Notes under the pieces: model-generated
The model's database searches: none
The model's input: only the letters and a program-made list of their open reading frames with translations
Told to the model about the DNA's origin: nothing
Shown here: in pieces, positions 1,457 through 58,127 of the stretch
Numbering within the stretch: the stretch's first letter is position 1
How the letters are laid out: the number at the start of each line of letters is the position of its first letter
Translations under genes and position numbers: made by a program
Origin: an uncultured Clostridia bacterium
GTDB taxonomy: Bacteria > Bacillota > Clostridia > Christensenellales > Borkfalkiaceae
DNA length: 64,000 nt
Assembly (NCBI GenBank): GCA_964594955.1
Contig: CAZQNK010000002.1
Location: 13,037 to 77,036 of the forward strand
Reading direction: 5' to 3'

Positions 1457-3274
1457 TCAGTCGGCGGCATCGGGAACGTTTATAAGGTAATTAAGATAAG
1501 CCCTGATATAGTTCTTCACTTCATCGGAAATTTCGTCGCTGTCAAGCAGCTCGTTCAACTTCTGACGGTATCCGCTGTCAAGCAATTCCGCATAGAAGGT
1601 ATATTCGCCCGTTTCGGGATTGTAGATGTAATCGTTGCCGGGATAAAGCGTTTCGCCCGTACCGTCGCCTCCGGGGCCGCTGATTTCGGGGTCGGTACTG
1701 CCTTCGCCCGATTCTGAGGAACCGTCGTTGACGGCGCGCCCGACCACGTCTACGCCGAATATACTGCCGAGAGTAGTTCTTATGTATGCGTCCGCCATGT
1801 AAGTATAGGCCTGCGTCTGCATTGCGGGAACGGAATTTGCTATAAAAGTATGGATAGCGCCGTCGTTTCCGCTTCCGTCGCCGGCTATTTCCGTTATAAC
1901 TTTGGAAAGCTGGTATTTAACGGCGCCCGTGCCGTTATAACGCGAATATGCCGTATAAGACGTGCTGTAAAGGTCGTAAACCGCGTCGTACAAAGCGTCG
2001 CCCGAAGCGATTTTTTCGCGCGAACCGCCGAACTTTACTCCGCCGTCAATGAGCGCGTCGTAATATTCTTTCAGCCCGTCGGATTTAAGCGCGGCCGCAA
2101 GCGCATTGACGAATGTCGACAAAACCCCGTCGGCGTCTTCATCGGTAAGCTTGTACACGACGCCGCCGAACTCGTCTCCCGCAGATTGGATGTAGCCGTC
2201 AATCTTGTTGAACAGCTTATCGTTTACTTCGGAAAGAACGCTGTATGACGTGAGCACGGTATTTATATCCTTATAAGCCGCGGCGCCGCTTCTTAAAGCG
2301 TCGGAAAAGTAAGTTTCCTTTCCCACGGTCAGGCTATAAGCTATATCGTCGTAGGTGTTTACATCTATCGTGGTTTCCGAAACGTCATACATCGACTCCT
2401 GCACATACTGCGTGACCGCCGGGGCGGTTATGCCCTCCGAAGTGAGATCCGATAGCAGCCCGTCAAGCGTTTCCGCATAGGACTCCGAGGCTGTTTCGAC
2501 GAGAATCGTATCCCCCTCCACGTCCTTTATAAGCGCACGAAGCCGCGCAAGCAGCTCCTCTTTTACTTCATAAGGAATTTCCGCCTGCACGGGAGCGCTG
2601 CGCAGGGGCAAGGCCACGCCTGCGACGAACAGCGCAACGGCAACTGCCGCCGCAGCCGCCTTTAAAACGATGTTTACAGCCGTCGGTTTGCGCGCGGGCA
2701 CCGCTTTAAGAGAGGTTTCCGTATCCTCCCTCTGCTTATCGAGCATTGCGCCCTGCTTGCCTTCGTACTCTATCATGGTCTGCGTCTTTTCGTCGAGCGC
2801 ATGTATTCTGTCCAGCTTTTTGGCAAGTTTTTTATCCGTGGGGCGCAAAGCGAAGAAAACGGTTGCTCCGCATACCGCCGCCGCGCATATTCCCGCCAGA
2901 AGATAATAATACCACGCCAATGCGACGGCGCAGGTTTTCAGCGCCAAAAGCAACGCGCCCGTAACGAGGAGCCCGCACAAAATTCCGCACGCCGCTCCGC
3001 AGACGACGGCGCGCCGCAGATATTTTCGTTTCAGTTTATCGAACTCGCCGTGCTCGGCAGGCACGACCACCGTTCCGCCGTCTGCACGTTTGTTTTTGCC
3101 CTTCCGCTTATTTTCGCTTTTCAGTATATTTTCGCTCTTCCGCTTTTTCCTGTGTTCCTGTATGATAAGAACCGCGTCGATCGCGCCCGAAACGACAGCC
3201 AGAACGGTAAAAACGATGAAACACGTCATAAGGGTACTCTTGGGAATACCTATTGCAAGCAAAATTTCAGCCAT
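1457..3274 (-). CDS. multi-pass membrane protein of unknown function carrying the shared N-terminal anchor module (copy A)
   Basis: 605 aa. N-terminus MAEILLAIGIPKSTLMTCFIVFTVLAVVSGAIDAVLIIQEHRKKRK, then a Lys-rich loop, further hydrophobic helices (about aa 90-150 and 205-225), and a roughly 380-aa acidic domain with no motif I recognise. GGAGGG SD before the ATG. The gene ends 96 nt upstream of the moxR start on the same strand. Confidence 0.75.
   Translation of the reverse strand: MAEILLAIGIPKSTLMTCFIVFTVLAVVSGAIDAVLIIQEHRKKRKSENILKSENKRKGKNKRADGGTVVVPAEHGEFDKLKRKYLRRAVVCGAACGILCGLLVTGALLLALKTCAVALAWYYYLLAGICAAAVCGATVFFALRPTDKKLAKKLDRIHALDEKTQTMIEYEGKQGAMLDKQREDTETSLKAVPARKPTAVNIVLKAAAAAVAVALFVAGVALPLRSAPVQAEIPYEVKEELLARLRALIKDVEGDTILVETASESYAETLDGLLSDLTSEGITAPAVTQYVQESMYDVSETTIDVNTYDDIAYSLTVGKETYFSDALRSGAAAYKDINTVLTSYSVLSEVNDKLFNKIDGYIQSAGDEFGGVVYKLTDEDADGVLSTFVNALAAALKSDGLKEYYDALIDGGVKFGGSREKIASGDALYDAVYDLYSTSYTAYSRYNGTGAVKYQLSKVITEIAGDGSGNDGAIHTFIANSVPAMQTQAYTYMADAYIRTTLGSIFGVDVVGRAVNDGSSESGEGSTDPEISGPGGDGTGETLYPGNDYIYNPETGEYTFYAELLDSGYRQKLNELLDSDEISDEVKNYIRAYLNYLINVPDAAD
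3125..3274 (-). repeat. shared 5' cassette, copy A (SD + ATG + about 50 codons)
   Basis: Hand alignment gives about 87% nucleotide identity to 8756-8905. Same reading frame and same peptide. Confidence 0.85.
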
Positions 3275-3413
3275 TTTCGCCCTCCTTCCGCGTTTTTCCG
3301 CAATATAACGCTTATATAAATATAACGTTTATATGATAGTTATATGATAAGTAAATGAATAAAAAAATAAATAAATAATAAATAAATGAATAAAAAAGAA
3401 TAACGATCGGCGC

Positions 3414-3722: not shown

Positions 3723-6700
3723 ATGAACCCCGTTTTAAGAAAAGGTTTGATTGCCGTCCTTTCGTTGTGTTCGGCGGTATGCCTGGCGTTGGGCGTAGCC
3801 GCCTGCGGCGGCGGCCACAATTTCAGTGAGAAATGGTCGTCGGACGACGTTGCCCACTGGCACGCCTGCACAGACAAAGGCTGCAACGAAAAAAGCGACT
3901 ATGAGGAGCATACCCCCGCCGACGAAGGCACCAAAGTGGATGAATATATTTACTATACATGCGAAGTTTGCGGGAAGGAGTACCGTTCCGAATCGGCAAC
4001 TTATATAGTCAACGTCAAAAATATCGGCAAAGCGGGCATAAGGGGCGTATCCGTTTCACTGTACGACGAAAGCAATAATCTTCTCTCTACCGAAACGAGC
4101 GGCACGGGCGGCATAGTAAGGTTCCGTAACCTGAAGGCGGCAAACTACAAAGCCGTTGTCGACGCAACTACCATTCCCGACGGATATACTTGCGGCGAAG
4201 AAGCTCTTACGCTTGATTTTACTGCGGACGTAAGGGCAGAGACGGTGTACCTGACTCCCCATCTTATAACGGATAAGGAAATGCCCACCGGCACGAAATA
4301 CAGCCTCGGAAGCGTTGTATACGACTTTGAATACACCGCATACTACAACGACGGGGCAAGCAGCACGATAAAACTTTCCGAGTATCTTAAAAATTATAGT
4401 GCGGTAGTTCTGCAGTTCTTCTATACGGGATGCTCTCCCTGCAGGGAGGAATTCCCCTATATCAATAAGGTTTACAACTACACCGCCTCCACAACGGGCG
4501 AAAATTACTATGATAAAATCGGCTGGATAGAGTTTGACTCTCCCACGGCGGGCGATACTCTCGGCGTTATGCAGAATTTTATTACGAGCAGCTACGGATT
4601 TGACAATTTTGCATACGTCTACGATGAAGCGCGCTACGATACTAATTTCGGCGTTACAGCCTATCCCACCACGGTAGTTATCGACAGATACGGCGTCGTT
4701 GCATATTATGAGTCGGGTTCGCAGCCCTCGTATTCGCCCTGGATTAAACTGTTTGAGTACTATTCTTCGGACGATTATGCGCCCAATTACTCCTCTTCCG
4801 GCGGCAGCTCGGACAGCGATACGGACACTACGGTGATACCCAACGTAACTATGCCCGACAGCAGCGAGTTTGTCGAATCTATAGTCACAACAGACGACAA
4901 ATACACCTTTGCCGACACGTTCACCTTCTCGCCCTACTCCGATGAGGACGGCAATCTTGACATATACAGCTGGCCCTGGCTTGTAAGCGGCAAAGACGAC
5001 GACGAGATAGACAGCATAAGCGATTACATTTATACCTCTAACGCCCATGAGTTGGGCACCTATTCCATACTTGTAATAGACGTTCAGCTTGAAGAGGGTC
5101 AGGTGTTCATGTTCGATTACTTTACTTCGACCGAACCCGGCAACGACATACTTTACGTACAGGTAGATACCGTTCTGCAAGCGCAATTATCGGGCGAGGC
5201 GGAAGGTTGGAAAACCTTCTATTATGTCGCCGCACATACGGGCAGTTATCAAATTACCCTGACTTATAGCAAAGACTCATCGATTGACGTAGGCGACGAC
5301 AAGATTTACGTTTCCAACATGCGCCTCGGGCTTGCCGAAGAGATTAAGGATAAAAAACTTCCCACGCCCGACCTGCTTTACAATGCGGCGACCGCCTATA
5401 CGGCGGAAGAGGGCAACACATACGGTCCCGGCTACGGCTATTCAGATTATGTAAGCGTTTATCTTTCCTCGGACGGCTACTATCATGTCGACCTTTACAA
5501 CAAGGGTAAGAGCGACGGCGACAGCCCCGACGGCGATCCCTACCTGCTTGCAGACCTGACCCATACCACCCCTTGGAACGCCACGTACAGCGTCTGGCTT
5601 TACGCCTACGTCGTACTTCATTCGGAAGATACCGACGGTTCAGGCGACAAAGATGGCATTCTTTACAAAAACCGTGCCTATGCGGAAGCTTTGGAGGACT
5701 ATTCCTGGGTACAGAACAACTGCGATTGGAACTATGTGCCCGTAAACGAGGAGCTCGCCACGATAATCAAAGCCGTAGTTAACTCATACGGAACCGAACG
5801 GCAGAAGACCAACGAAAACCAGTGGCTGGAAGTTTGCCGTTACTTTATACACTACGGGGCGGCCCATTCCGACGGCGACAGCTGTTACGCGAACGACAAC
5901 CTCGCCCTGACGTACGGCAATAGGATGCCCCTGTATTCGGGAGAAGTGAGCGACGAGAACTCGGAAGGCAACGAGCGGATAATTCACGTAGAAGTTAAAG
6001 CTCCCGTCATACCGCGCGGCTTCTATTACAGCTTCACTGCGAAAACCGACGGCGTATACCTCGTTTACACCAATGAAAACGCCGACGAAACAACTGTGGA
6101 TCCCTACGTATGGGTGGCGAAAGCCGACGGAGAGTTTATCGCAGAAAACGACGACTTTGACCTTTCGGTAATCTATTCGGGATATATAAGCGCAAAAGAC
6201 TCCGAAAAATATGCGTACAACAGCTATATACGCGTTTATCTTAAAGCGGGCGAAATTTATATGATATGCGGAGCCGTTGCCGAAGACGATGGCAATTTCG
6301 ACGTTTACATCAGATATTTGGGCAAAGAACTTACCTATTTCACCCCCGTTTCGGACGATTACATCTACACCTACATCTACAACTACGACGAAGAAACCGA
6401 CGAAGAAACCTATGAAATTTACTATCCCACGTTCTTCTCCGACAGATACGGTGTGGACGACGAAGGTTTCTACGCGGTGAACGACGACGGAACAAAATCC
6501 CCTATTTATATAAATATGACGGGAACAACCTATTACCAGATAGGGTACGCCGGGATGACGTTAGCAGATATGATCGAGAATGACTACTGGACGGGAGCTA
6601 ACAACGTTAAGATGCGCGATTACCTGAATATGGCGAAAAACAACACCGACGTTACCGTCGACGGCATATCTTTGGCGGGCTTTGTACGCGCCGACGAAAC

Positions 6701-6848
6701 GATTGCCAAAATACTGAATGATGCAATCAACGGCGGAAGTTCAAGCGAGGTGGCCAACTATTGCTCCAACGCCTGGATGTTGACGGCGTTCTACGAGAGA
6801 ACCATAAACGCCTGGTCGGCAGCGCAAGACGAGGACGAAGACGAATGA
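3723..6848 (+). CDS. large surface lipoprotein with a Cys/His-rich module, Ig-like beta-sandwich, TlpA/ResA-like thioredoxin domain (CSPC) and a long acidic C-terminal region
   Basis: 1041 aa. Lipobox LGVAA|C (Cys28). HNFSEKWSSDDVAHWHACTDKGC...YYTCEVCG module at aa 31-88. VNVKNIGKAGIRGVSVSLYDESNNLL..GGIVRFRNL is CarboxypepD_reg-like. FFYTGCSPCREEFP (CSPC at nt 4431-4442) and AYPTTVVIDRYG form the thioredoxin fold. There is a PPC-like segment DPYVWVAKADGEFIAENDD. Confidence 0.85.
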   Translation: MNPVLRKGLIAVLSLCSAVCLALGVAACGGGHNFSEKWSSDDVAHWHACTDKGCNEKSDYEEHTPADEGTKVDEYIYYTCEVCGKEYRSESATYIVNVKNIGKAGIRGVSVSLYDESNNLLSTETSGTGGIVRFRNLKAANYKAVVDATTIPDGYTCGEEALTLDFTADVRAETVYLTPHLITDKEMPTGTKYSLGSVVYDFEYTAYYNDGASSTIKLSEYLKNYSAVVLQFFYTGCSPCREEFPYINKVYNYTASTTGENYYDKIGWIEFDSPTAGDTLGVMQNFITSSYGFDNFAYVYDEARYDTNFGVTAYPTTVVIDRYGVVAYYESGSQPSYSPWIKLFEYYSSDDYAPNYSSSGGSSDSDTDTTVIPNVTMPDSSEFVESIVTTDDKYTFADTFTFSPYSDEDGNLDIYSWPWLVSGKDDDEIDSISDYIYTSNAHELGTYSILVIDVQLEEGQVFMFDYFTSTEPGNDILYVQVDTVLQAQLSGEAEGWKTFYYVAAHTGSYQITLTYSKDSSIDVGDDKIYVSNMRLGLAEEIKDKKLPTPDLLYNAATAYTAEEGNTYGPGYGYSDYVSVYLSSDGYYHVDLYNKGKSDGDSPDGDPYLLADLTHTTPWNATYSVWLYAYVVLHSEDTDGSGDKDGILYKNRAYAEALEDYSWVQNNCDWNYVPVNEELATIIKAVVNSYGTERQKTNENQWLEVCRYFIHYGAAHSDGDSCYANDNLALTYGNRMPLYSGEVSDENSEGNERIIHVEVKAPVIPRGFYYSFTAKTDGVYLVYTNENADETTVDPYVWVAKADGEFIAENDDFDLSVIYSGYISAKDSEKYAYNSYIRVYLKAGEIYMICGAVAEDDGNFDVYIRYLGKELTYFTPVSDDYIYTYIYNYDEETDEETYEIYYPTFFSDRYGVDDEGFYAVNDDGTKSPIYINMTGTTYYQIGYAGMTLADMIENDYWTGANNVKMRDYLNMAKNNTDVTVDGISLAGFVRADETIAKILNDAINGGSSSEVANYCSNAWMLTAFYERTINAWSAAQDEDEDE

Positions 6849-8080: not shown

Positions 8081-8905
8081 TCATTCGTCCAACAGGGATC
8101 TTACGTCCTGAAAGAAACTTTCCGAAACTTTATCCGGATATCTGAACCGCTCAACGCCATTTCTATCGAGAACGACCGTCATCGGATATGTGTTTTTACC
8201 GCCGAACGCGTAATACATGGAACCGTCGCCGCTGTTATCCCAGGTAAAGCTTACGTTATCGTAATACTGAAATTCCCACTTCATTCTTTTAGTAACATAA
8301 TTTTCAAGATCGTTATTATCATAACTCGTATCCACCGTACTTGAATGGATTACCACCAAGGAAATATCTTCGGGATATTCCGCGGCAAACGCGCCGAATT
8401 CGGGCAATTCTTCCTGACAGGGCTGACAGCCCATATACCAGAAGTTGAGTATCACTATCTTGCCCGCGTCCAGATCGTCCTGCAAGGTATAAGTTGCGTC
8501 CTCTTCTCCGAAATACTTCTTCATTGTAAAGCTTTCAACAGTATCGCCTATCTCGTAACTTGTGGACGCAACCGTTTCTTTATGGAAAACGTTATAGTAA
8601 ACCAAGACCGAAAGAAGAAATACCAACGCAACCGCCCAGGCAACCGCTTCCAAAATGAAATTGCGCTTTTTAACGTATTCCGCCGTGCCGCGGTAAGCCT
8701 TCCTCTCTGCGCGTTCCTGCGCTTTTATAAGCGCTTTTTCATCCGTCACGACTTCTTTTTTGACTTCGCCTTTTTTCCTGTTGTGTTCCTGAACGATAAA
8801 CACCGCGTCGATTGCACCCGTCACGACTGCGAGAACGGTAAAAACGATAAAACATGTTATAAGGGTACTCTTAGGAATACCTATTGCAAGCAAAATTTCA
8901 ATCAT
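8081..8905 (-). CDS. membrane-anchored TlpA/ResA-like thiol-disulfide oxidoreductase (CQPC) with the shared N-terminal module (copy B)
   Basis: 274 aa. MIEILLAIGIPKSTLITCFIVFTVLAVVTGAIDAVFIVQEHNRKKG, a charged loop, and a second TM helix (ILEAVAWAVALVFLLSVLVYY). The thioredoxin fold shows KIVILNFWYMGCQPCQEELPEF (CQPC at nt 8417-8428) and TYPMTVVLDRNG. The start overlaps the upstream stop by 8 nt (ATGATTGA). Confidence 0.85.
   Translation of the reverse strand: MIEILLAIGIPKSTLITCFIVFTVLAVVTGAIDAVFIVQEHNRKKGEVKKEVVTDEKALIKAQERAERKAYRGTAEYVKKRNFILEAVAWAVALVFLLSVLVYYNVFHKETVASTSYEIGDTVESFTMKKYFGEEDATYTLQDDLDAGKIVILNFWYMGCQPCQEELPEFGAFAAEYPEDISLVVIHSSTVDTSYDNNDLENYVTKRMKWEFQYYDNVSFTWDNSGDGSMYYAFGGKNTYPMTVVLDRNGVERFRYPDKVSESFFQDVRSLLDE
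8756..8905 (-). repeat. shared 5' cassette, copy B
   Basis: 10 mismatches in 151 nt against 14833-14982 by hand alignment (about 93%). Similarity ends right after the Lys-rich codons. Confidence 0.9.
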
Positions 8906-10049
8906 CTTTCGCTCCCTCCGCGCTTACGGACGAGTTGAATTCGCTCCCGCCGACCTCTGCACCGTCTAATCGGGCATCGCGCGTCGGTTCTTCCGAAAGG
9001 CATTGAGCAGACAGTACCTCTCCCGCCGCGCCCGTCTGCGCGCCTGCACAGGTTCCGCCCTGAGCGTTAAGGCTGAGTGTTCCGCCCTTTTCAGTACTGC
9101 TTGAAACAAGCGAGCTGAGCGCAACCTTTTCGCCTGCGGCGCTGTCTCCCCCTTCCTCTATGGCGTTCGCATGCAGGAAAATTTTACTTCCCTTCCAACT
9201 TATCGCCTTAGTGGGGCAAACTTTAAGGCAGTCGCCGCAATGTATGCACTCATGGTCGCCAACGTGGCGTATGTCCATTTTACAGGTCTGTATACACAGT
9301 CCGCAGTCAACGCATTTTTGCTTGTCCAACTTTATGCCCAGCATCGCAACGCGGCAGAAAAAGCCGTATATCGCGCCGAGCGGGCACAGGAACCTGCAAA
9401 AAATTCTGTAAATGAATATGCTGCCCACTATTATCAGCACCAATACGCAGAACTTCCAGGTGAAAAGCGGGCCGAGCATGGTATAAAAATCGTCGTTGTT
9501 GCCGTTCGCAAGCAGGGAAACCGAGCCGAGCAGCGTTCCCGAAGGACATATGTATTTGCAGAATGCGGGTATTGCGCTGCTTATGCCCGAATATGCCAGC
9601 GGAATTATTATTACAAGCACGGCAAGCAATACGTATTTGAAATACGAAAGAACCCGCGTGATCCTGTTCTTTTTGACCTTAGGGGTCTTTATTTTATACA
9701 ACAATTCCTGTATAAGCCCGATGGGGCACAAAAAGCCGCAAATCGTTCTGCCCAAAAGCAAGCCGAAAAGTATTATTATGCCGAAAACATAGAAGGGCGC
9801 CTTCGTGTTGGACGCCGCCAAAGCGTTCTGCAACGCGCCCAAAGGGCAAGCGCCTATCGCGCCGGGGCAGGAATAGCAATTAAGACCGGGAACGCACAAA
9901 TACTTTGTGTTGCCCGTATAAATCGAACCGGATACAAAGCCCTTTATGTTTGCGTTATATAAAAGCGCCGCATAAAGCTGGATAAGCCTCCTTTTGGAAG
10001 GTCTGTGGGCAACGAACCAATCTTTTATTCTAACGAAAAATTTTTTCAT
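8898..10049 (-). CDS. polyferredoxin-type 4Fe-4S membrane protein (COG0348 / NapH-YccM-like)
   Basis: 383 aa. Repeated membrane-flanking Cys motifs: CYSCPGAIGACPLG, CGFLCPIG, CKYICPSG, CRFLCPLG. Two ferredoxin motifs: CVDCGLCIQTC and CIHCGDCLKVCP. Ends with an A/G/S-rich tail of about 95 aa. Confidence 0.85.
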   Translation of the reverse strand: MKKFFVRIKDWFVAHRPSKRRLIQLYAALLYNANIKGFVSGSIYTGNTKYLCVPGLNCYSCPGAIGACPLGALQNALAASNTKAPFYVFGIIILFGLLLGRTICGFLCPIGLIQELLYKIKTPKVKKNRITRVLSYFKYVLLAVLVIIIPLAYSGISSAIPAFCKYICPSGTLLGSVSLLANGNNDDFYTMLGPLFTWKFCVLVLIIVGSIFIYRIFCRFLCPLGAIYGFFCRVAMLGIKLDKQKCVDCGLCIQTCKMDIRHVGDHECIHCGDCLKVCPTKAISWKGSKIFLHANAIEEGGDSAAGEKVALSSLVSSSTEKGGTLSLNAQGGTCAGAQTGAAGEVLSAQCLSEEPTRDARLDGAEVGGSEFNSSVSAEGAKDD

Positions 10050-12342: not shown

Positions 12343-12393
12343 AAAAAATACTTGAAATGTGAATATGGCGTTTTAAAGTGTTTGATAAAAGAA

Positions 12394-12432
12394 GCAGCGG
12401 CACAGGGCAAAATTTTTGCCCTGTGCCGCTGC
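12394..12432 (+). terminator. 19-bp perfect palindrome downstream of the desulfidase-family gene
   Basis: gcagcggcacagggcaaaa-t-ttttgccctgtgccgctgc, 52 nt after the stop. Confidence 0.5.
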
Positions 12433-12447
12433 GTTACTTGCTCACAT

Positions 12448-12516
12448 TGTCATTCCGAGCGCAGTCGAGGGATCTCCACTCCCCACTGTCATTCCGAGCG
12501 TAGTCGAGGAATCTCC
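12448..12516. repeat. two tandem REP/MITE-like forward units
   Basis: tgtcattccgagcgcagtcgagggatctcc (12448-12477) and tgtcattccgagcgtagtcgaggaatctcc (12487-12516). Confidence 0.8.
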
Positions 12517-12545
12517 ATAAACAATACAATACGTTTTTAACAAGT

Positions 12546-12592
12546 GAGATCTCTCCACGCCGTTCACTGCGTTCTCTTTGGTCGAGATGACA
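12546..12592. repeat. REP/MITE-like reverse unit
   Basis: gagatctctccacgccgttcactgcgttctctttggtcgagatgaca. One mismatch against 7104-7150. Inverted relative to the units at 12448-12516. Confidence 0.85.
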
Positions 12593-12647
12593 TGATTGTG
12601 CTTGATTTACAGATTAATACATGCGCTATACTCAGTAGAAAGACACC

Positions 12648-12678
12648 AAAGCGCCGCGGGCAATGCCCGCGGCGCTTT
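12648..12678. terminator. 15-bp perfect palindrome between convergent genes
   Basis: aaagcgccgcgggca-a-tgcccgcggcgcttt. A/T runs on both sides, so it could terminate in either direction. Confidence 0.5.
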
Positions 12679-12741
12679 GATGTAAAAGGGTTTCACGCTT
12701 TCACAAAAATGATTAACAATTGTGTGTTCAGATAATTAAGT

Positions 12742-13245
12742 TTAGCTTTCGCTACTGCCCTCTGTGGCATCTTGTTTTTCATAAATCGTTACTTTGCTAT
12801 ATGCGCCGTCTTTTCCAAATTCGCTGTCGCTTTCAAACGGCCACTTTTTATATGTAGTATTGCTGTAGGTGACTGTACTGTTATCAGTACTGGTTGCAGT
12901 ATCGGTAGTATCGCTACTCTCTTCGGCATAAGCTACGGTTACAGCGGAAGTGTTAGCGGTATCGTTCACTGTTATAGTCTTACTTTTAAGCGAGCCGTTT
13001 TCTACTAAGAAATAATATGTATCATCATCCTCTACCTTTATAATAAGATCGGGGTTAGCTTTTTCGCCCGTTTCAACTATATATTCGGTATAGGCGTTCT
13101 TTGCCGCCGACAAAGCCGCACTTTCCTTTGCGTTATTGACAACGTTTGTAAACGTGGGAATGAGCACTGCCGCAAGAATTGCAATCACCGCAATTACGAT
13201 TACCAACTCTACTATAGTAAAGCCCTTTTTTGCCTTCTTTAACAT
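12742..13245 (-). CDS. type IV pilin / pseudopilin-like protein (prepilin-type N-terminal cleavage/methylation domain)
   Basis: 167 aa. MLKKAKKG|FTIVELVIVIAVIAILAAVLIP is a class III signal peptide with Glu+5. The C-terminal half is Thr/Ser-rich. Confidence 0.85.
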   Translation of the reverse strand: MLKKAKKGFTIVELVIVIAVIAILAAVLIPTFTNVVNNAKESAALSAAKNAYTEYIVETGEKANPDLIIKVEDDDTYYFLVENGSLKSKTITVNDTANTSAVTVAYAEESSDTTDTATSTDNSTVTYSNTTYKKWPFESDSEFGKDGAYSKVTIYEKQDATEGSSES

Positions 13246-13283
13246 CTTTTTTACTTCTTTTTTGTTTTTGCCGTTAAAAACCC

Positions 13284-13309
13284 TTTTGTTCGCGCATGCG
13301 CGAACAAAA
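13284..13309 (-). terminator. intrinsic-terminator-like hairpin in the pilin leader / opp 3' region
   Basis: Minus strand reads TTTTGTTCGCG-CATG-CGCGAACAAAA followed by GGGTTTTT. A second palindrome, AGAGCCTAGGCTCT, abuts it at 13309-13322. Confidence 0.5.
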
Positions 13310-13332
13310 GAGCCTAGGCTCTTAGCAGTTAA

Positions 13333-13362
13333 ATAATATCACACTTTTTTATATATTGTCAA
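13333..13362 (-). promoter_or_regulatory. sigma-A-type promoter candidate upstream of the pilin gene
   Basis: Minus strand: TTGACA (13362-13357), 18-nt spacer, TATTAT (13338-13333). Confidence 0.4.
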
Positions 13363-13409
13363 TAATTTAATGTAAATTTTTTATATTTAATTTACTCGGT
13401 TGAAATTAT

Positions 13410-13437
13410 GCCGCGGGCGGCAACTGCCGCCTGCGGC
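13410..13437 (-). terminator. GC-rich hairpin after the opp operon
   Basis: gccgcgggcggca-ac-tgccgcctgcggc (one mismatch), 27 nt past the stop at 13464. Same hairpin family as 35609-35638. Confidence 0.45.
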
Positions 13438-13463
13438 GCAATAATTTTATATAAATCTGCTTT

Positions 13464-13703
13464 TTATGCCTTCAACCACAGGTACGCCAAAATGTACATC
13501 AATAACCCTACTATGATAATTATGCCTATCACGGGGGCAAACGCCTCAAAAGCGCCGCGTATCATTTTGCGCTGTTCGCTTTTGCTTATCTTGGGTTTTT
13601 CTTTGCCGCCCTTTTTTTGCGGGTCATAGCCCCGCATACCCTCGACGTTCATATCGGCGAACGTCGTTTCGGTATCCAAATCGTCCTTACGCTTTTTGCG
13701 CAT
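13464..13703 (-). CDS. small tail-anchored membrane protein, unknown function
   Basis: 79 aa. Charged N-terminal part, then the single helix FAPVIGIIIIVGLLMYILAYLWL. Overlaps the upstream ABC ATPase gene by 17 nt. I recognise no homology. Confidence 0.5.
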   Translation of the reverse strand: MRKKRKDDLDTETTFADMNVEGMRGYDPQKKGGKEKPKISKSEQRKMIRGAFEAFAPVIGIIIIVGLLMYILAYLWLKA

Positions 13704-14982
13704 CGGATCTACCCGCCTTTTTGCCTTTCGCCGCCTCAGCTGCCGCTAATGCCGCAAGTTCGTCCTGCTCCTTGGCGAGGCGCAAATACTCCGCCGTCTC
13801 TTCCGCAGTGTTATAAAGGTGGCAGGCGCAGAAATGCCCTTCCTCTATCTCTTTATACGCGGGATTAAAACGCGAGCATACATCCATACAGCTTTCGCAC
13901 CTTGTGTGGAATTTACAGCCTTTGGGGGGATTTACGGGCGAAGGGATATCGCCCTTTAAAATAATCCTGTTCATTTTAACGTGCGGATTGGGCACGGGAA
14001 CAGCGGAAAAGAGCGCCTTGGTGTACGGGTGAAGAGTGTTTTCAAAAATTCTTTCTTTAGAACCGTATTCGACCATACTGCCCAAATACATGACGCACAC
14101 TTCGTCCGATATATGTTTTACAACGGATAAGTCGTGCGAAATGAACACATACGTCAACCCCAATTCACTTTGAAGTTCTTTCAGCATATTTATTATCTGT
14201 GCCTGTATTGAAACGTCCAAAGCGGAAACGGGTTCGTCGCAGATGACAAGTTCGGGTTTCAGCGCCAACGCGCGCGCAATACATATACGCTGTCTTTGTC
14301 CGCCCGAAAATTCGTGGGGATAGCGCCCGAAATAGTGGGACTGCAATCCGCACATTTTCATTATGCCGAGAACGTATTCCTGATAATTTTCTTTTGTACA
14401 GATTTTATGGTGAAGAGCGGCTTCGCCGATTATCGCGCCCACGGTAAGTCGGGGGGAAAGGCTTGCATAAGGATCCTGAAAGATCATCTGCATGTTGGGG
14501 CGGAGTTTATTAAAATCCCTCTCTTTAAGAGCGGAAACTTTTTGTCCCTTGAACCAAATGTCGCCGCCCGTTACGTCGTACAAACGGAGAATGGTTCTGC
14601 CCATGGTCGTTTTGCCGCAGCCGCTTTCGCCGACTATGCCCAAAGTTTTTCCCTTATTTATTTTAAACGAAACGCCGTCCACCGCCCTTAAATACGAAGT
14701 CGGCTTGCCCAAAATATTTTTGCCTGTGACGAAATATTTTTTAAGATCTACAACTTCAAGCAGGGGGTCGGTTTCGGGATTGTAGGGGCGCTCCTCATAG
14801 CCGATTTTTTCATGAGGCACCGCAACCGTCGCTTTTTTGACTTTGCCTTTCTTTCTGTTGTGTTCCTGAACGATAAACACCGCGTCTATTGCGCCCGTCA
14901 CGACTGCGAGAACGGTAAAAACGATAAAACACGTTATAAGGGTACTCTTGGGAATACCTACTGCAAGCAACAATTCAATCAT
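13687..14982 (-). CDS. oligopeptide/dipeptide-type ABC transporter ATP-binding protein (OppF-like) fused to the shared N-terminal TM module (copy C)
   Basis: 431 aa. MIELLLAVGIPKSTLITCFIVFTVLAVVTGAIDAVFIVQEHNRKKGKVKK plus a linker, then GESGCGKTT Walker A, the FSGGQRQRICIARAL signature and LVICDEPVSALD Walker B. The Opp C-terminal domain shows HPYTKALFSAVP and a CxxHxRC motif. Confidence 0.9.
   Translation of the reverse strand: MIELLLAVGIPKSTLITCFIVFTVLAVVTGAIDAVFIVQEHNRKKGKVKKATVAVPHEKIGYEERPYNPETDPLLEVVDLKKYFVTGKNILGKPTSYLRAVDGVSFKINKGKTLGIVGESGCGKTTMGRTILRLYDVTGGDIWFKGQKVSALKERDFNKLRPNMQMIFQDPYASLSPRLTVGAIIGEAALHHKICTKENYQEYVLGIMKMCGLQSHYFGRYPHEFSGGQRQRICIARALALKPELVICDEPVSALDVSIQAQIINMLKELQSELGLTYVFISHDLSVVKHISDEVCVMYLGSMVEYGSKERIFENTLHPYTKALFSAVPVPNPHVKMNRIILKGDIPSPVNPPKGCKFHTRCESCMDVCSRFNPAYKEIEEGHFCACHLYNTAEETAEYLRLAKEQDELAALAAAEAAKGKKAGRSDAQKA
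14833..14982 (-). repeat. shared 5' cassette, copy C
   Basis: About 93% nucleotide identity to 8756-8905. Same ATGATTGA junction, with the upstream gene's stop codon embedded. Confidence 0.9.
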
Positions 14983-16282
14983 TTTTGTCCTCCCCGCCTT
15001 GCCTGTAAAGATAACAGGAAACGCTGTGAGTATCGCTTACCTTGATAAGTTCGGGGTATTTGCCCGCACATTCGGGCTTACACATTTCGCATCTGTCGCG
15101 GAAATAGCAATAATCGGGCATATCCACGGGGTTAGGAACGAACCCCGGTATACAGTACAGCGAATCTACCTCGCCGTCTACGGTGGGTTTGCTCTTTTGC
15201 AGACCTATCGTATAGGGGTGCATGGGGCGGTCGTAAATATCTTCAGCCGTACCCATTTCTATAATTCTGCCCGCGTACATGACCACTACGTAATCGGCCA
15301 TCTCTGCAACAACGCCCAAATCGTGCGTTATAAGCATTATACTGCCGTTGATTTTACCTTTAATGTCGCGCAGAAGGTCGAGTATCTGCGCCTGAATAGT
15401 CACGTCAAGCGCCGTTGTAGGCTCGTCCGCGACGATAAGTTTGGGATTGCACAAAAGCGCCATGGCTATCATGACCCTTTGGCGCATACCGCCCGAAAGC
15501 TCGTGCGGGTACTTTTTGTACACGCCTTCGGGGTCGGCTATGCCGACGAGGTTAAGCATTTCTATACTGCGCTCCTTTACGCGCTGTTTGGAAATGCCCT
15601 CTATATGAAGCTTGCCGACCTCGTCAAGCTGGTTGCCTATCGTAAATACGGGATTGAGGGAGGTCATAGGCTCCTGAAAGATCATTGCGATCTCCCTGCC
15701 GCGGATGGAACGCATAATTTCCGTGGGCATCTTGGCGATATCGACCACCTTCGTTTCCATTTCGTAAAGATTGCCGCCAAGCTCGTTTTTCTTTATGATA
15801 GGTTTGCCTTTTTCGTTCAGCTTGCGCCTTTCGACGCCGTCATCGCCTATTTCCGTTTCATATACGGGAATCTTCCTGCCGCGCCCGTCGCGCTTGAACA
15901 TATTGGAGCGGAAACGTATGCTTCCGCTTACTATCTGCCCGCTGGGCGCCTGAACGAGCTGCATGAGGGAGAGCGACGTCACGCTTTTGCCGCAACCGCT
16001 TTCACCGACGACGCCCACAGTTGAGCCTGCGGGGATATTGAACGTAACCCCGTCCACCGCCTTAACTACGCCCGCGTCCGAAAAGAAGTAAGTGTGCAGA
16101 TCGTCGAATTCGATAATGTTATTATCGTCCTTCATCTGCGTGACGTACTCGCTTTCGTCTGCTTTACGCTTTTTGTATTTTTCAAACTTTTTTATCGCCG
16201 CGGAATTTTCCTTGGCAATGCGTTTGGACTCTGAGCGGGTTATATAATGCTTTTTGTTCTCTTGTTTAAGTTTATCCGCCAT
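14975..16282 (-). CDS. oligopeptide/dipeptide-type ABC transporter ATP-binding protein (OppD-like) with an N-terminal extension and an internal insertion
   Basis: 435 aa. GESGCGKSVTSLSLMQL, LSGGMRQRVMIAMAL, LIVADEPTTALD, HPYTIGL. Extra features are a Lys-rich N-terminal extension of about 55 aa and an insert of about 50 aa (RFRSNMFKRDGRGRKIPVYETEIGDDGVERRKLNEKGKPIIKKNELGG...) before the Q-loop. Confidence 0.9.
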   Translation of the reverse strand: MADKLKQENKKHYITRSESKRIAKENSAAIKKFEKYKKRKADESEYVTQMKDDNNIIEFDDLHTYFFSDAGVVKAVDGVTFNIPAGSTVGVVGESGCGKSVTSLSLMQLVQAPSGQIVSGSIRFRSNMFKRDGRGRKIPVYETEIGDDGVERRKLNEKGKPIIKKNELGGNLYEMETKVVDIAKMPTEIMRSIRGREIAMIFQEPMTSLNPVFTIGNQLDEVGKLHIEGISKQRVKERSIEMLNLVGIADPEGVYKKYPHELSGGMRQRVMIAMALLCNPKLIVADEPTTALDVTIQAQILDLLRDIKGKINGSIMLITHDLGVVAEMADYVVVMYAGRIIEMGTAEDIYDRPMHPYTIGLQKSKPTVDGEVDSLYCIPGFVPNPVDMPDYCYFRDRCEMCKPECAGKYPELIKVSDTHSVSCYLYRQGGEDKND

Positions 16283-52566: not shown

Positions 52567-53019
52567 ATGAAAAAGAAATTATCTATATTTGTGTCTTTTT
52601 TATTCCTAATAATATTATCATTGATATTGACGGCGTGCGGCTCTACCAAAGCAAAAACATACGGCATAGTTGCAAGCATTGGTTTGCCAGAAGATAATGA
52701 CGTTTACGGCGTTTACAATTCAATTCATTCCGACACAACGACGCTTGAAGAAAACGATTATGTTTTGGAAGAAAGTAAAACTTACCATATCTTGGTTGGC
52801 TATTCTGCCGGCGGCGGTAGTCAATACCCCGTAATTAATAATCCCGAAAGCGTTGTCTTCAAATATGATACCGACGCTTTGGAAATTCAATCTGTAACTC
52901 CAAACGACGGAGAAATAAAGCATTATGCTTTGGTTTGTAAAAAAGCAATACGGTATTCGGCTATTTTAATAGAACTTGATGAATATTCTTATACTATAAT
53001 CGTAAGTACAAATCAGTAA
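52567..53019 (+). CDS. small lipoprotein, unknown function
   Basis: 150 aa. MKKKLSIFVSFLFLIILSLILTA|C lipobox (Cys24). GGAGG SD. The gene looks clearly more AT-rich than neighbouring genes. Confidence 0.7.
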   Translation: MKKKLSIFVSFLFLIILSLILTACGSTKAKTYGIVASIGLPEDNDVYGVYNSIHSDTTTLEENDYVLEESKTYHILVGYSAGGGSQYPVINNPESVVFKYDTDALEIQSVTPNDGEIKHYALVCKKAIRYSAILIELDEYSYTIIVSTNQ

Positions 53020-53168
53020 TATAAATTTCGGTTTATCGGGCAATTATAAAAAGAGAAGATTTGATATGCACCCCAAAAGTATTTAACTTATGGAGTGCAT
53101 ATCAAAATTTATCACTTTATTGCGCGTTTTTTTCGGCGCGCCTTATTACGTCCGTCGGGAGCGCGCCG

Positions 53169-53753
53169 TTATGCCTGCGTCTCCGACGGGTTTTCCTCTT
53201 TCTCTTTCGGTCTGCCGTCAATAAATGCCGAAACGCCTTTCTTCTGCAAGCGCAAAACGGCAAAGTACAGCAATGAGCCGAGCGCATAAATCCACAGCCC
53301 TTCGGTTGCGCACATGGAGCCGAAATAGAACCAATAGGCGACGGCGGCGCTTTCATAACCGTCTGCCCCGCCGCATAGGAAAACTATTACAAGCGGAATT
53401 ATAAAGGCGTTTATTATTATGGGAAAAAATCCGCCTGCTATGACCTTTGCCGCATGGTTTTTAATAAGTCTGCCCGCGCCGTAAGTGCACAGCGCGGCAA
53501 CCAAAGTCGCCAATCCGCCGACGGGAACGTCGTACATGACGAACGGCGAAGCGACGTTTGCAAGCATGCAGCCTATCCAAAGTCCTGGAACGGCTTCGGG
53601 AAAGAAAAGCGGCAATATGCACAGCGCTTCGGCGGGGCGTATCTCGGGTATTCCTTCATACGCTATCGCGCCGAAAGCGTAGGTGAGTGCGACGTACAGC
53701 GCGGCGATTATGCCTGCGCGGCAAAGTCTTTTGGTTGTGAAAATGTTTTTCAT
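53169..53753 (-). CDS. queT: queuosine-precursor transporter QueT (ECF S-component-like)
   Basis: 194 aa from MKNIFTTKRL. IIAALYVALTYAFGAIAY...EALCILPLFFPEAVPGLWIGCMLANV...GGLATLVAALCTY matches my memory of QueT. The longer track ORF (to 53888) would run through the leader RNA structures. Confidence 0.8.
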   Translation of the reverse strand: MKNIFTTKRLCRAGIIAALYVALTYAFGAIAYEGIPEIRPAEALCILPLFFPEAVPGLWIGCMLANVASPFVMYDVPVGGLATLVAALCTYGAGRLIKNHAAKVIAGGFFPIIINAFIIPLVIVFLCGGADGYESAAVAYWFYFGSMCATEGLWIYALGSLLYFAVLRLQKKGVSAFIDGRPKEKEENPSETQA

Positions 53754-53778
53754 GATTTTTTTCGCAGATCCGCGGCTT

Positions 53779-53811
53779 AAAAAAGCGGACGGCAAATTAA
53801 AAACCGTCCGC
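53779..53811 (-). terminator. intrinsic terminator inside the queT leader (candidate riboswitch expression platform)
   Basis: Minus strand: GCGGACGG-tttttaatttg-CCGTCCGC followed by TTTTTT. It ends about 25 nt before the queT ATG. Confidence 0.65.
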
Positions 53812-53847
53812 GTTAATCGGGGCATATGTGCCCCCGAATCTGCATTT

Positions 53848-53890
53848 CTCCTCGGTTTTTTTAATAGATGTGTTGAGCCGAAAACCATCT
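53848..53890 (-). promoter_or_regulatory. preQ1-I-like riboswitch aptamer candidate
   Basis: Minus strand: AGAUG-GUUUUCGGCUCAACA-CAUCU-AUUAAAAAAA-CCGAGGAG. It has a 5-bp P1, an A-rich tail, and a possible P2 (loop UCGG with tail CCGA). This parallels the B. subtilis queC aptamer AGAGGUUCUAGCUACACCCUCUAUAAAAAACUAAGG (from memory), and it sits upstream of queT. Confidence 0.5.
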
Positions 53891-53968
53891 TGCGGGGCGT
53901 ACCCCGTTAACGGGCGCCTGTTTTGCGCCCGCTTTATTTAATTTTAAATTAAGCCCGTTAAGGCAAAA

Positions 53969-54871
53969 TTATTCCTTGTCTTCTCCCTGCTCTTCGCTCT
54001 TTTTGGAGTTGCTGTTGCCGAGATAAGTGCCGAAATAAATTTCTTTTTTGCCGCGTTTTGCGCCGCCCGAAGGACGCCCGCCCTGACGTCTGTCGTCGCG
54101 TCTGTCACGGTTTCCCCTTTCGTTTTTGCCGCTGCGGTCGCGCTTATCGAAGCGTCTTTCGCCTTTTTCATAACGTTCGCCGCGGTCGCGCCCGTCGCGG
54201 GGATATCTTTCGCCCCTTTCGCGGCGTTCGCCGTAGCGCAAACCCTTATCGTAAGGTTTTGCGTTGTTGGGGATAACCACGACATACCTTGCGGGTTCTT
54301 TGCCTTCCGAAACTGTCTTTACGTCGGTATTATCGACAAGGGCGGCGTGTATTATGCGCCTTTCATAGGGGTTCATGGGTTCGAGCATAAGCTTTCTGCC
54401 CGTTTCAACCGCGCGTTTTGCAAGTTTATCGGCAAGTTTTTTTAAAGTTTCCTCGCGCTGTTCGCGGTAATTTTCGCAATCGACAACCACTTTTTTATAT
54501 TCTTCCCTGCCGATATTCGCAGCCGCGCCCGCCATGCACTGTATTGCGTCCAACACGTCGCCGCGCTTTCCTATTACGCGAGCCGAATTGGGAGTTTCTA
54601 TATTGATTTTTATGCTGTCTTCATCGGAAACGATGACTCCTTTGCCCGGAATTCCGAGAATGGACAAAAGCCCGTCTATAAATTCCGCGGCGCGTTCCGC
54701 GTCCGTCTGTTTGCGCGTGATTTTTACTTTTGCCTTTACAGAACCGAAAAGTTTCTTTTTCCCCTCTTCCAGAACTTCGATTTCTGCGTCCACGAGGGTT
54801 ATTCCAAGCGTTTTAAGACCCTCTTCAATAGCTTCGTCCACGGTCTTTGCCGTAAAGATATTTTCTTGCAT
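53969..54871 (-). CDS. khpB: Jag/KhpB RNA-binding protein (Jag_N, KH, R3H) with an Arg/Gly/Glu/Asp-rich tail
   Basis: 300 aa. The KH region is VIGKRGDVLDAIQ and the R3H region is MNPYERRIIHAAL. The last 98 aa or so are GERRERGERYPRDGRDRGERYEKGERRFDKRDRSGKNERGNRDRRDDRRQGGR... Confidence 0.9.
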   Translation of the reverse strand: MQENIFTAKTVDEAIEEGLKTLGITLVDAEIEVLEEGKKKLFGSVKAKVKITRKQTDAERAAEFIDGLLSILGIPGKGVIVSDEDSIKINIETPNSARVIGKRGDVLDAIQCMAGAAANIGREEYKKVVVDCENYREQREETLKKLADKLAKRAVETGRKLMLEPMNPYERRIIHAALVDNTDVKTVSEGKEPARYVVVIPNNAKPYDKGLRYGERRERGERYPRDGRDRGERYEKGERRFDKRDRSGKNERGNRDRRDDRRQGGRPSGGAKRGKKEIYFGTYLGNSNSKKSEEQGEDKE

Positions 54872-56103
54872 TACTTTAACCTCTTTCTATTCGACGTGCG
54901 CGGATCATCCAATCCTTTTTTTTCGAAACGCACGGATACTACCTTATTTATAATCAGCGTTGAAATTAAGCTGTACGTTGTATTTACTATCATGTACATT
55001 GAGAACGCCGCGCTGTAAAAGAACGAGAATAAACCGAAAATTATCGGCATTATAATCATCATCCATTTGTTTGTGCTTGCTGCCGAACCGTCTACCGAGC
55101 TCAATTCGTTTGTAGCCTTTTGGGAACGCATCGTAACGAACTGTTGAAGGAACATCATGCCTATCGCAAGCACGATGAGAACGAAATAGCCGTTATAAGT
55201 ATCCTTTTCGGTTGAAAGGTTGTAAGTTACTTCGTTATAGCTTTCCTCATAAGTGTCGGGTATACTGGAACCCACAGCAGCACGCGCAACTGCCGAAGAG
55301 AAATCCGAGAAAGAGGGGACTTCTTTATTCATCATAGAGTCGGGATACCATACGTTGCCTATCCAGAAGAACGAGGTTACGTCCTTATTGGCGTCGTACG
55401 CTTCTTTTGCCGCCTCGCGCGCGTTCAATTGTATATATTTTACAACTACTTCGTTTTTATCCGCCTCGGTTGTACACTCATCGAAGGGCGAACTTCCGTT
55501 TTCTTTTTCATAATATGCTTCGAACCTGTCGTAATCCACAAAGTATGCGTCTTTATAATTATCGTCCGCAACGAGGAAATGGTTTTCCTGCGAATCGTCC
55601 TTTCCCGATATGACGTAATCGAGCACGCTTTCATTGTAAGCCGCTACGAGATTGTTATATGTGGTCAAATTTGCATAATTGGAGTACGTCGAAAAGGACG
55701 AAAACACGACCATGAATATCACAAGCGAAATCAGCATGGGAAGACAGGCGCCGAACGGCGAATAGCCGTTTTGCTTTTGCAATTCCATATACTTCTGGTT
55801 GTACATATTTTTATCGTTGGCGTACTGCTTTTGCAATTTTTCCATCTGGGGGCGCATTTTTTCCATTAAAAGCGCCTGCTTTTTTGTCTTTACCCTTGAA
55901 AAAACATCCAGAGGGAGAACTATCGTCTTTAAAATAAGAGTAAAGCAAATTGCGCCTATCGCCACGCCCGCATAGTTGTCGGCAAACAGGTCGAAAAGCC
56001 AGCTTATAAGCTTTGCTATCCAGTTAAGATCTATTGATGGTATCTCTTCGACGCCCGCCTGAATGGCCTCCTGCGAAGTTGCAAGCAAATTAAATATATT
56101 CAT
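54871..56103 (-). CDS. yidC: YidC/Oxa1-family membrane protein insertase
   Basis: 410 aa. PLDVFSRVKTKKQALLMEKMRPQMEKLQKQY and the NGYSPFGACLPMLISL core. Longer than typical Bacillota YidC because of an insert of about 130 aa. Position is between jag and yidD/rnpA. Confidence 0.9.
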   Translation of the reverse strand: MNIFNLLATSQEAIQAGVEEIPSIDLNWIAKLISWLFDLFADNYAGVAIGAICFTLILKTIVLPLDVFSRVKTKKQALLMEKMRPQMEKLQKQYANDKNMYNQKYMELQKQNGYSPFGACLPMLISLVIFMVVFSSFSTYSNYANLTTYNNLVAAYNESVLDYVISGKDDSQENHFLVADDNYKDAYFVDYDRFEAYYEKENGSSPFDECTTEADKNEVVVKYIQLNAREAAKEAYDANKDVTSFFWIGNVWYPDSMMNKEVPSFSDFSSAVARAAVGSSIPDTYEESYNEVTYNLSTEKDTYNGYFVLIVLAIGMMFLQQFVTMRSQKATNELSSVDGSAASTNKWMMIIMPIIFGLFSFFYSAAFSMYMIVNTTYSLISTLIINKVVSVRFEKKGLDDPRTSNRKRLK

Positions 56104-56107
56104 TATA

Positions 56108-56712: not shown

Positions 56713-56723
56713 CTTTTATGCCG

Positions 56724-56858: not shown

Positions 56859-56955
56859 TTTCTTTTTCCTTTTTATTTATTATATTGGTGAACCGACAGG
56901 CATAATCGGTTTATTTGAATCGGCTAATTAATAATAAAGCAAAAAATGCTTACTG

Positions 56956-58062: not shown

Positions 58063-58127
58063 AGTTTATCCTCCTTGATGAATGTATTATATTAAAAGAA
58101 ATAAATGGTAGATTTATTAGTAAGCGG

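Follow-up and report, generated by a model that had tools for sequence, protein, structure and literature searches.

The 64,000-nucleotide (nt) stretch of contig CAZQNK010000002.1 analysed here (assembly GCA_964594955.1, an uncultured Clostridia bacterium of the Borkfalkiaceae; the whole stretch is called the window) contains three minus-strand genes with unrelated products that begin with the same peptide. The host genes are oppF, which encodes an ABC ATPase, a gene for a thioredoxin-like protein and a gene for a 605-amino acid (aa) membrane protein. This shared start, called the module below, had been picked out in an initial annotation of the sequence, and the three copies and their host genes were recovered as described there. 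Probably, the junction between oppD and oppF was copied twice, splitting one gene and extending another. The observations that carry this explanation are the copies and their boundaries, their presence or absence in relatives, the fission of one host gene, the loss of the old start codons of another, and purifying selection.

The ATGs of the copies were located at 3274 (copy A), 8905 (copy B) and 14982 (copy C). By blastn, B and C are 92.9% identical over 155 nt, ungapped and with 11 mismatches, in agreement with an earlier hand count of 10 mismatches in 151 nt. A and B are 84.6% identical over 156 nt, and A and C 84.6% over 143 nt. Private substitutions are present in each copy. A 50-nt degenerate pattern matched exactly three sites and none in 100 shuffles, and tblastn with each peptide gave no fourth copy within the 64-kb window. 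The similarity starts ~19-24 nt before the ATG and ends just past the RKK(G)(K/E)VKK codons. It includes a GGAGG ribosome-binding site, which bears out the purine-rich Shine-Dalgarno sequence (SD) that had been noted before all three ATGs. In copies B and C, the start codon lies in the sequence ATGATTGA, and the embedded TGA is the stop codon of the upstream gene, as previously proposed, both at B (polyferredoxin ...KDD*) and at C (OppD ...KND*).

Comparison of loci identifies copy C as the source and oppF as the ancestral host. The source unit (14833-15001, minus strand) consists of the last ~19 nt of oppD with GGAGG, of ATGATTGA, and of oppF codons 1-50, which encode a membrane helix and a basic stretch. 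Within ATGATTGA, the oppF start (14982-14980) and the oppD stop (14977-14975) overlap. The 3' end of oppD (435 aa, 14975-16282, minus strand) forms the leader and the stop of the copied unit. The oppF gene (13687-14982, minus strand) encodes 431 aa with the ABC_tran and oligo_HPY domains (Pfam and NCBIfam; PF00005 4e-31, PF08352 6e-19), arranged as module residues 1-45, a disordered linker (46-72), the ATPase with oligo_HPY, and a C-terminal helix. The domains and the operon order oppABCDF are those of an OppF/DppF-type protein, and the scores were 401 bits for NF008453 (cut-off 408) and 395 bits for OppF NF011659.

Homologous loci of relatives were then compared. Loci L007-L012 carry the module; L002, L006, L013, L014 and L016 come from other relatives, and L017 from a second strain. 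In L007-L012 there is one copy each, at oppF; none was found at the other relatives' loci, apart from a diverged version of the unit in L013. The module was thus found at oppF in two other lineages, with OppF identities of 88% and 69%. In the first (protein P0015 of L007, represented by 10 contigs from several samples), the N-terminus is MIGILLAIGIPKSTLITCFIIFTVLAVVTGAIDAVLIVQEYNRKKGKVKK and the source unit lies at L007 10001-. In the second (P0025 of L013), the N-terminus is MADNVLALGMSHNALIICFLVFLSLTVIIAIADVLLIIDASEKK, and the module aligns with that of the window by BLASTP from residue 1, ungapped, with 33-34% aa identity (pairwise E=1e-9), whereas identity in the ATPase body is 77%. OppF has therefore carried the helix long enough for it to outpace the ATPase in divergence. 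P0016, P0017, P0024 and most other close OppF relatives have acidic, non-membrane N-terminal tails. The oppF ATG overlaps the oppD stop in L013 and L014 (ATGGCTGA) and in L007 (ATGA) as well, and this conserved overlap argues that oppF really starts at the module ATG. An oppD-derived leader is present in both A and B; that of A differs from the L007 oppD tail at 3 of 19 positions. Since the orthologues of the A and B hosts lack the module while oppF orthologues of two lineages have it, ancient paralogy is excluded. The initial annotation was thus right to propose a copied 5' module instead of old paralogy, and its portable cassette holds as far as copying goes. Far from floating free, the unit was copied from the oppD-oppF junction that resides in this region.

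Beyond the module, the OppF N-terminus is an accretion hot spot in these Clostridia. Among the relatives P0016-P0133, acidic tails of 10-50 aa were seen, as were an M29-peptidase-like N-domain (P0128, P0129, and probably P0100, P0118 and P0119), an S4-like domain (P0063), a zinc-ribbon-like CxxC..CxxC tail (P0112) and an unrelated membrane helix (P0094). OppD of the window has a 57-aa Lys-rich N-terminal extension.

Copy B marks the fission. In L007, the gene order is that of the window (oppABCDF, a small gene, SDH_alpha, a 272-aa gene), and the next gene is a single 602-aa open reading frame (ORF) that joins a Fer4_5 polyferredoxin to an AhpC-TSA/Redoxin domain. The same fusion, of 569 aa, is found in the more distant relative L016. 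The window has two genes instead: an upstream product of 383 aa, a NapH/MauN-like membrane polyferredoxin (8898-10049, minus strand), and a downstream product of 274 aa, the thioredoxin-like (ResA/TlpA-like) gene (8081-8905, minus strand). By blastn, L007 11699-15135 corresponds to window 12342-8924 and L007 15132-15810 to window 8764-8083; the global alignment has a single 163-nt gap (window 8924-8762) and no other indel. Copy B is this 163-nt insertion (8762-8924, minus strand; ends ambiguous by about 4 nt), made up of the leader derived from the oppD tail (ribosome-binding site included), ATGATTGA, and the first ~48 codons of the module. Its identity is 89.8% to the oppF module of L007 itself and 92.9% to copy C of the window. 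The last ~7 codons of the polyferredoxin gene and its TGA stop derive from the inserted oppD tail (...AEGAKDD*), and from residue ~51 on the 274-aa protein aligns with the C-terminal part of the L007 602-aa protein at 79% aa identity. As 163 = 3x54+1, the insertion shifts the frame by +1, which equals the oppD/oppF frame offset; the thioredoxin half is consequently out of frame with the polyferredoxin and in frame with the imported ATG. The insertion site is the cytoplasmic linker of the fused ancestor. The module does head the thioredoxin gene, as had been reported; it was not added to an existing gene start, having been inserted inside a gene whose fission it caused.

Both fission products remain under purifying selection: compared with L007, pN/pS (proportions of nonsynonymous and synonymous sites that differ) is 0.073/0.606 (0.12) and 0.126/0.468 (0.27). 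The 274-aa protein consists of the module helix, a cytoplasmic basic linker, a native signal-anchor helix (84-102) and an extracytoplasmic CQPC thioredoxin domain; it matched AhpC-TSA (1e-9) and Redoxin (5e-7) and scored below the cut-off of the ResA subfamily, so that membership is at superfamily level only. Polyferredoxin and thioredoxin are now two overlapping genes, probably coupled in translation, as predicted from their overlap. At the 3' junction of the insert, the donor GTCAAAAAAG resembles the target GTAAACAAAG, a short and imperfect microhomology. Programmed +1 frameshifting that would remake the fused protein was considered and rejected: GAT-TGA is not slippery, and the extra helix would invert the thioredoxin topology. 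As a separate observation, CGGCGGGAGCGAA (8940-8952, in the polyferredoxin 3' region) lies 32 nt before the near-identical CGGAGGGAGCGAA (8908-8920) at the 5' end of insert B. In the relative, that site reads GTTGAGAGCGAA; the resemblance may be chance or a trace of insert capture.

Copy A marks the extension. Gene A (1457-3274, minus strand) encodes the 605-aa multi-pass membrane protein, which belongs to no known family in Pfam or NCBIfam, and lies upstream of a MoxR-DUF58-BatA/VWA operon. Its five orthologues (58-29% identity, 506-534 aa) lack the module. Synteny is kept in the relatives, with a divergent 1041-aa gene on one side and the MoxR operon. All five start with MRxEFDKLK, equivalent to window residues 74-80, which puts the start point at ~74-77; gene A has been extended by 73 codons. 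Copy A and the new N-terminal extension occupy 3056-3295 (minus strand), as a leader with ribosome-binding site (3295-3275), ATGGCTGA and module codons 1-~44 (3274-~3144), an in-frame Lys-rich linker of 18-nt repeats (~3143-3087) and the former 5' untranslated region (UTR), now codons 63-73 (3086-3056). The ancestral start position (3055-3053) now reads GAG. As ATGCGCATGGAATTCGAT of L002 corresponds to GAGCACGGCGAGTTCGAT in the window, the old gene A starts have been lost, and the L002 5' UTR GTGGTTACGGGTGCTGGCT aligns with gene A codons 69-73. The linker (~3087-3140) contains an in-frame 18-nt (6-codon) repeat with three units in the window and four in L017; because the unit number differs between strains, it is a length-variable coding minisatellite. 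Its expansion obscures the junctions of copy A. The leader of A resembles those of B and C, yet no gene precedes it, and the stop/start-overlap junction is found at B and C. A 73-aa gene upstream of the L002 orthologue was considered as a free-standing module and rejected as a spurious ORF in an AT-rich promoter region.

Several features were recorded upstream of gene A. Directly before the module A leader, at 3302-3334, two 15-nt palindromes (ATATAAACGTTATAT and ATATAAGCGTTATAT) are repeated with a 17-nt period and look operator-like. On the minus strand, 3505-3477 resembles a strong promoter (TTGCCA-17-TATAAT with TG). The divergent gene (3723-6848, plus strand) encodes the 1041-aa protein, with SdrD_B-like surface and AhpC-TSA/Redoxin domains, and has conserved counterparts in relatives (L002; in L006, an SdrD_B protein of 1121 aa). 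It is a second thiol-redox protein near the Bat-like operon.

The course of events that we propose is the following. A segment of ~160 nt would have been duplicated twice into co-oriented sites 6 and 12 kb away. It would comprise the last ~19-24 nt of oppD (with the ribosome-binding site and the stop in ATGnnTGA), the oppF start and codons 1-~48. Illegitimate, microhomology-assisted recombination or template switching is the most likely route, and not transposition. Copy B would have landed in the inter-domain linker; the upstream half would then end at the imported oppD stop and the downstream half, fused in frame to the imported oppF start, would give the second of two overlapping, presumably coupled cistrons. 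Copy A would have landed upstream of the 605-aa gene, where the old 5' UTR and an expanded 18-nt repeat would have become an in-frame linker. With the ancestral ATGs lost, that protein would now begin at the module ATG. The insertions would have been tolerated because the segment after the helix is cytoplasmic in all hosts, so that topology is kept.

Structural predictions agree with the last step. In the model, the module anchors OppF of a small uncultured Clostridia lineage in the membrane by its N-terminus. It is built of a short helix, a Gly-Ile-Pro kink, a ~24-residue hydrophobic helix and a Lys/Arg-rich stretch, which should hold the C-terminal side in the cytoplasm (N-out/C-in). The Kyte-Doolittle 19-mer peak is 2.5-2.6 at residues 20-38, and there is one K/R in residues 1-14 versus 8-12 in residues 39-70. 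AlphaFold2 (34-sequence alignment) predicted for OppF a helix at 2-7, a kink at G9-I-P11 and a helix at 12-45 with a predicted local distance difference test (pLDDT) of 82-91, followed by a linker (46-59, pLDDT <50) and the ATPase. The N-out/C-in orientation had been predicted before, and charge distribution, hydropathy and model uphold it for all three hosts. In C, the ATPase is cytoplasmic; in B, a cytoplasmic linker is needed for the native anchor 84-102 to keep the thioredoxin domain outside; in A, a basic ancestral N-terminus stands before a helix that runs from in to out. The added helix should thus leave topology unchanged. No cleavable Sec or lipoprotein signal was recognized in the module: MIEILLAIGIP (residues 1-11) lacks a net positive charge, the sole Cys context is L-I-T-C or L-M-T-C, with Thr at -1 and 20 hydrophobic residues behind it, and the positive charges come after the helix. 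Nor was a type IV pilin-like signal found, PF07963 giving no match on the module. The roles suggested earlier for the module in its hosts, namely a shared complex, targeting or translational control, are candidate functions.

The peptide is under purifying selection, with dN/dS (ratio of nonsynonymous to synonymous divergence) of 0.19-0.36 for all six module pairs (Nei-Gojobori), and residues G9, C18, F19, F22, the intramembrane D33 and others are invariant across five module versions. Synonymous sites were compared as well. For nine orthologous genes of the window and L007/L002, pS is 0.51-0.70. For the module, it is 0.13 between B and C, 0.27-0.34 between A and the other copies (A-C 0.27) and 0.23 between C and L007. 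No other of 72 non-overlapping 48-codon windows (mean 0.617, sd 0.137) is as low as this last value (0.233; lowest-window binomial P about 5e-5), and the oppD 3' end just upstream is at baseline. Low module pS may reflect either synonymous-site constraint or exchange of the oppF 5' end between lineages. The nucleotide identity had been described as beyond what a helix requires. This is partly sustained by the between-species synonymous divergence and not by raw identity, which across species is unexceptional (module 88.7% versus 82-92% in neighbouring oppD/oppF windows), so that this candidate signal was dropped. Likewise, of the suggested recent copying or gene conversion, copying is supported, its recency is only relative (changes are many and mostly synonymous), and gene conversion is unneeded.

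Selection of the module as a portable cassette is an unlikely alternative. Here, a dimerising or docking helix would bring the thiol reductase and the membrane protein of the Bat operon to the Opp permease, or the two together, and an SD-sequestering hairpin would enforce coupling and explain the nucleotide-level conservation. It could draw on the purifying selection in all three contexts, the low synonymous divergence, the invariant Asp33, an A26-x3-G30-x3-A34 face, and the persistence of D33, C18, G9 and others even in the 33%-identical L013 version. In all copies and in L013, moreover, the ribosome-binding site and AUG are predicted to pair with codons ~20-25 around an apical stem, a fold that is not predicted for the module-less L014 and L016. 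The fold z-scores are nevertheless only -0.2 to -1.8 (z = -0.20 for the 159-nt core of insert B, 8923-8765), and a covariation test of the module RNA fold was not above controls; conserved RNA structure is a weak, model-based lead. The partner interaction is hypothetical, selection on a hydrophobic helix that has to remain inserted would be expected with no particular partner, and the close OppF relatives P0016 and P0017 manage without the helix. In its full form, with the oppD-oppF junction as a selected, reusable plug-in whose RNA would hide the ribosome-binding site, leaving the second protein to be translated solely by ribosomes coming off the gene before it, and whose helix would dock a common membrane partner, so that the hosts are coupled and co-localised, the proposal is equally doubtful.

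Translation from the module ATGs is itself deduced from the reading frames. It is quite improbable that the module is absent from the mature A and/or B proteins, with translation starting downstream and the copies being decaying remnants or leader-like. GTG codons in the A linker (GTGGTCGTG, codons 69-71) could serve such starts, and the linker is a low-complexity repeat that varies between strains. Against this, no stop interrupts the frame between the module ATG and the host gene in any of the three, the indel between strains preserves the frame and the three module differences are synonymous. The dN/dS values and the mutated ancestral ATGs of gene A point the same way, and in B the imported ATG and ribosome-binding site are the sole canonical start placed after the imported stop.

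Rickettsia palindromic elements (RPEs) insert in frame, as ~150-bp units, into unrelated genes (PMC10969869). By analogy, the module might be a small non-autonomous mobile element of the miniature inverted-repeat transposable element (MITE) or RPE type, with oppF merely one target; its ~160 nt, its in-frame peptide in unrelated genes and its three copies within 12 kb (counts cover the 64-kb window) are of that kind (PMC10969869). We regard this as very unlikely. No terminal inverted repeats bound any copy, and there is no palindromic fold or clear target-site duplication: the copy B flanks share just 4 ambiguous nt (GTAA/GTCA), and the imperfect microhomology of 10 nt seen there is part of the donor sequence. 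On its 5' side, the unit consists of the end of the oppD coding sequence, and the oppF position is orthologous in three lineages; the 33%-identical version at the same oppF site shows that the module evolves vertically with oppF. Multiplication elsewhere was not seen, the module loci of relatives having one copy each. With regard to cassette-based gene conversion or a diversity-generating retroelement, no reverse transcriptase, integrase or transposase was found among the 30 window proteins scanned (genes at 22-53 kb covered only in part), and substitutions among the copies are not adenine-specific. A profile of the three peptides was run against 1.84 billion cluster representatives (50%-identity clusters, representatives only) and returned only the window's own thioredoxin protein and one low-complexity false match. 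The module pattern and profile had no match in GTDB genomes, JGI metagenomes, IMG/VR, plasmids or phages; the lineage is absent from those collections. Contigs encoding the exact OppF and thioredoxin proteins were also looked up, and none was retrieved. Pfam and NCBIfam gave for the module only sub-threshold transmembrane noise, which accords with the earlier remark that no described family or sorting signal has this sequence, and Rfam gave nothing in the window.

The proteins are encoded on an NCBI contig of 79 kb, and reproducibility of the copies was checked in Logan contigs. Contig L001 (SRR10165007) reproduces the copy A region (100% over 6,238 nt) and L018 (SRR10165007) the oppD-module C junction (100% over 9,566 nt). 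L018 ends 81 nt into the module, at the point where B and C become identical, as is expected of a unitig that stops at a repeat. In the second strain (L017, SRR10165005; 97.8% identical), copy A is present with three substitutions, all synonymous. The two flanks of copy B are halves of one orthologous gene in L007, both collinear with it, which is not the pattern expected of a chimeric join. That the copies are an assembly artefact (chimeric joins at a repeated k-mer in a metagenome-assembled genome, with B in one assembly) or ordinary ancient paralogy of N-termini is therefore extremely improbable, given the private substitutions of each copy, the recovery of A and C by a different assembler and of A in a second strain, the halves that flank B, and the module-less orthologues of A and B.

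Some points weigh against the double copying of the oppD-oppF junction. Copy B is documented in a single NCBI assembly only, and further copies or a second oppF-like donor may exist outside the 64 kb. The mechanism is weakly supported, by short imperfect junction microhomologies. Neutral copying alone fails to explain the low between-species pS of the module. The last point is how old copy A is. It retains ATGGCTGA, as in the outgroups, and 13 of its substitutions are private, and C, B and L007 share ATGATTG. This suggests that A derives from an oppF allele older than the split of the window and L007 lineages, although L002, apparently a member of the L007 lineage to judge from the shared sample series and similar pS, has no copy A. 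These data would be reconciled if lineages had later exchanged the oppF 5' end, or if there were a second donor that was not seen.

Among known systems, the double copying of the junction is better filed under ectopic partial gene duplication that makes chimeric genes, together with gene fission. Its unusual feature is a duplicated fragment that makes up an entire prokaryotic coupling junction and was reused twice. Translational coupling acts through overlapping stop and start codons (ATGA, ATGnnTGA). The oppD/oppF and polyferredoxin/thioredoxin pairs overlap in this way, by ATGATTGA, with the ribosome-binding site in the upstream 3' end; here, in contrast, the junction itself was duplicated as a cassette, and coupling is predicted from its layout. 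Fission of fused genes in prokaryotes was reportedly described in comparative studies by Snel, Bork and Huynen in 2000 and by Kummerfeld and Teichmann in 2005, and it is usually ascribed to a nonsense or frameshift mutation with a fortuitous internal start. The present case is alike in that polyferredoxin and thioredoxin are fused in relatives and adjacent genes here; it differs in that one insertion supplied the stop, ribosome-binding site, start and membrane helix. Variable surface-protein families, for instance the lipoprotein families of mycoplasmas, have conserved 5' signal-peptide cassettes, their genes being paralogues maintained by recombination. As there, a near-identical ribosome-binding site, start and membrane-targeting peptide head several genes, but the module hosts are unrelated and their orthologues lack the cassette. 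Chimeric genes that arise by partial duplication and illegitimate recombination are a concept covered in a review (PMC3449122), with a Drosophila example (PMC1463047). The module resembles these in that a 5' fragment of oppF was ectopically duplicated and fused to other genes as a new N-terminus. Well-documented cases are mostly eukaryotic, with kilobase duplications, whereas the present one involves ~160 nt with a prokaryotic intercistronic junction, reused twice within 12 kb. RPEs and intragenic MITEs also place a ~150-bp unit in frame in unrelated genes and add a tolerated conserved peptide (PMC10969869), but RPEs are palindromic, multi-copy and selfish and have no resident gene of origin; the module has no inverted repeats or stable fold, has a resident donor (oppD 3' and oppF 5' ends) and three known copies, and brings its own stop, ribosome-binding site and start. 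The literature searched yielded no account of an OppF anchored in the membrane or of gene fission caused by the copying of a junction.

Other features of the neighbourhood were recorded. A conserved tail-anchored small membrane protein of 79-83 aa is encoded at 13464-13703 (minus strand; L007 11262-11513), overlapping the oppF 3' end. In L013, L014 and L016, genes of 80-90 aa are found at the corresponding place, whether or not oppF has the helix; its conserved place suggests that it may be an unannotated accessory of the Opp system. Between this gene and SDH_alpha, a 167-aa type IV pilin-like gene (MLKKAKKGFTIVELV..., PF07963 N_methyl) lies at 12742-13245 (minus strand) with its own AT-rich upstream region. 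As the stretch 12343-13473 of the window is matched by only 192 nt in L007, it is another lineage-specific insertion in this neighbourhood. Further along, jag-yidC-yidD-rnpA (53969-56712, minus strand), dnaN (56956-58062, minus strand) and gidB (58382-59101, plus strand) lie within a region (53000-62000) of 37-40% GC with a GC-skew switch near 58 kb; no dnaA was seen beside dnaN. The gene cluster at 53-62 kb and the skew switch point to a putative chromosomal replication origin region. The module copies lie 43-55 kb to one side of it, co-oriented with nearly all genes there.

The three copies offer a datable case of change in bacterial protein architecture without mobile elements. In one step, a very short ectopic copy of a junction between cistrons can divide a fused gene into two co-translated ones, provide a functional translation start and supply a transmembrane helix. 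Fission is usually deduced from its end states; here the inserted DNA, the donor and an unsplit ancestor-like state are all visible. A rule of tolerance follows for membrane-protein evolution and engineering, namely that an N-out/C-in helix with a basic stretch can be placed before any cytoplasmic segment with topology undisturbed. For annotation, three apparently unrelated proteins share an orphan N-terminus left unexplained by every family database. Should a coupling element at the RNA level lie behind the low synonymous divergence, the cassette would be a compact natural part for coupling expression. Were the plug-in proposal true, it would be the bacterial counterpart to shuffling an exon that encodes a targeting and assembly module.

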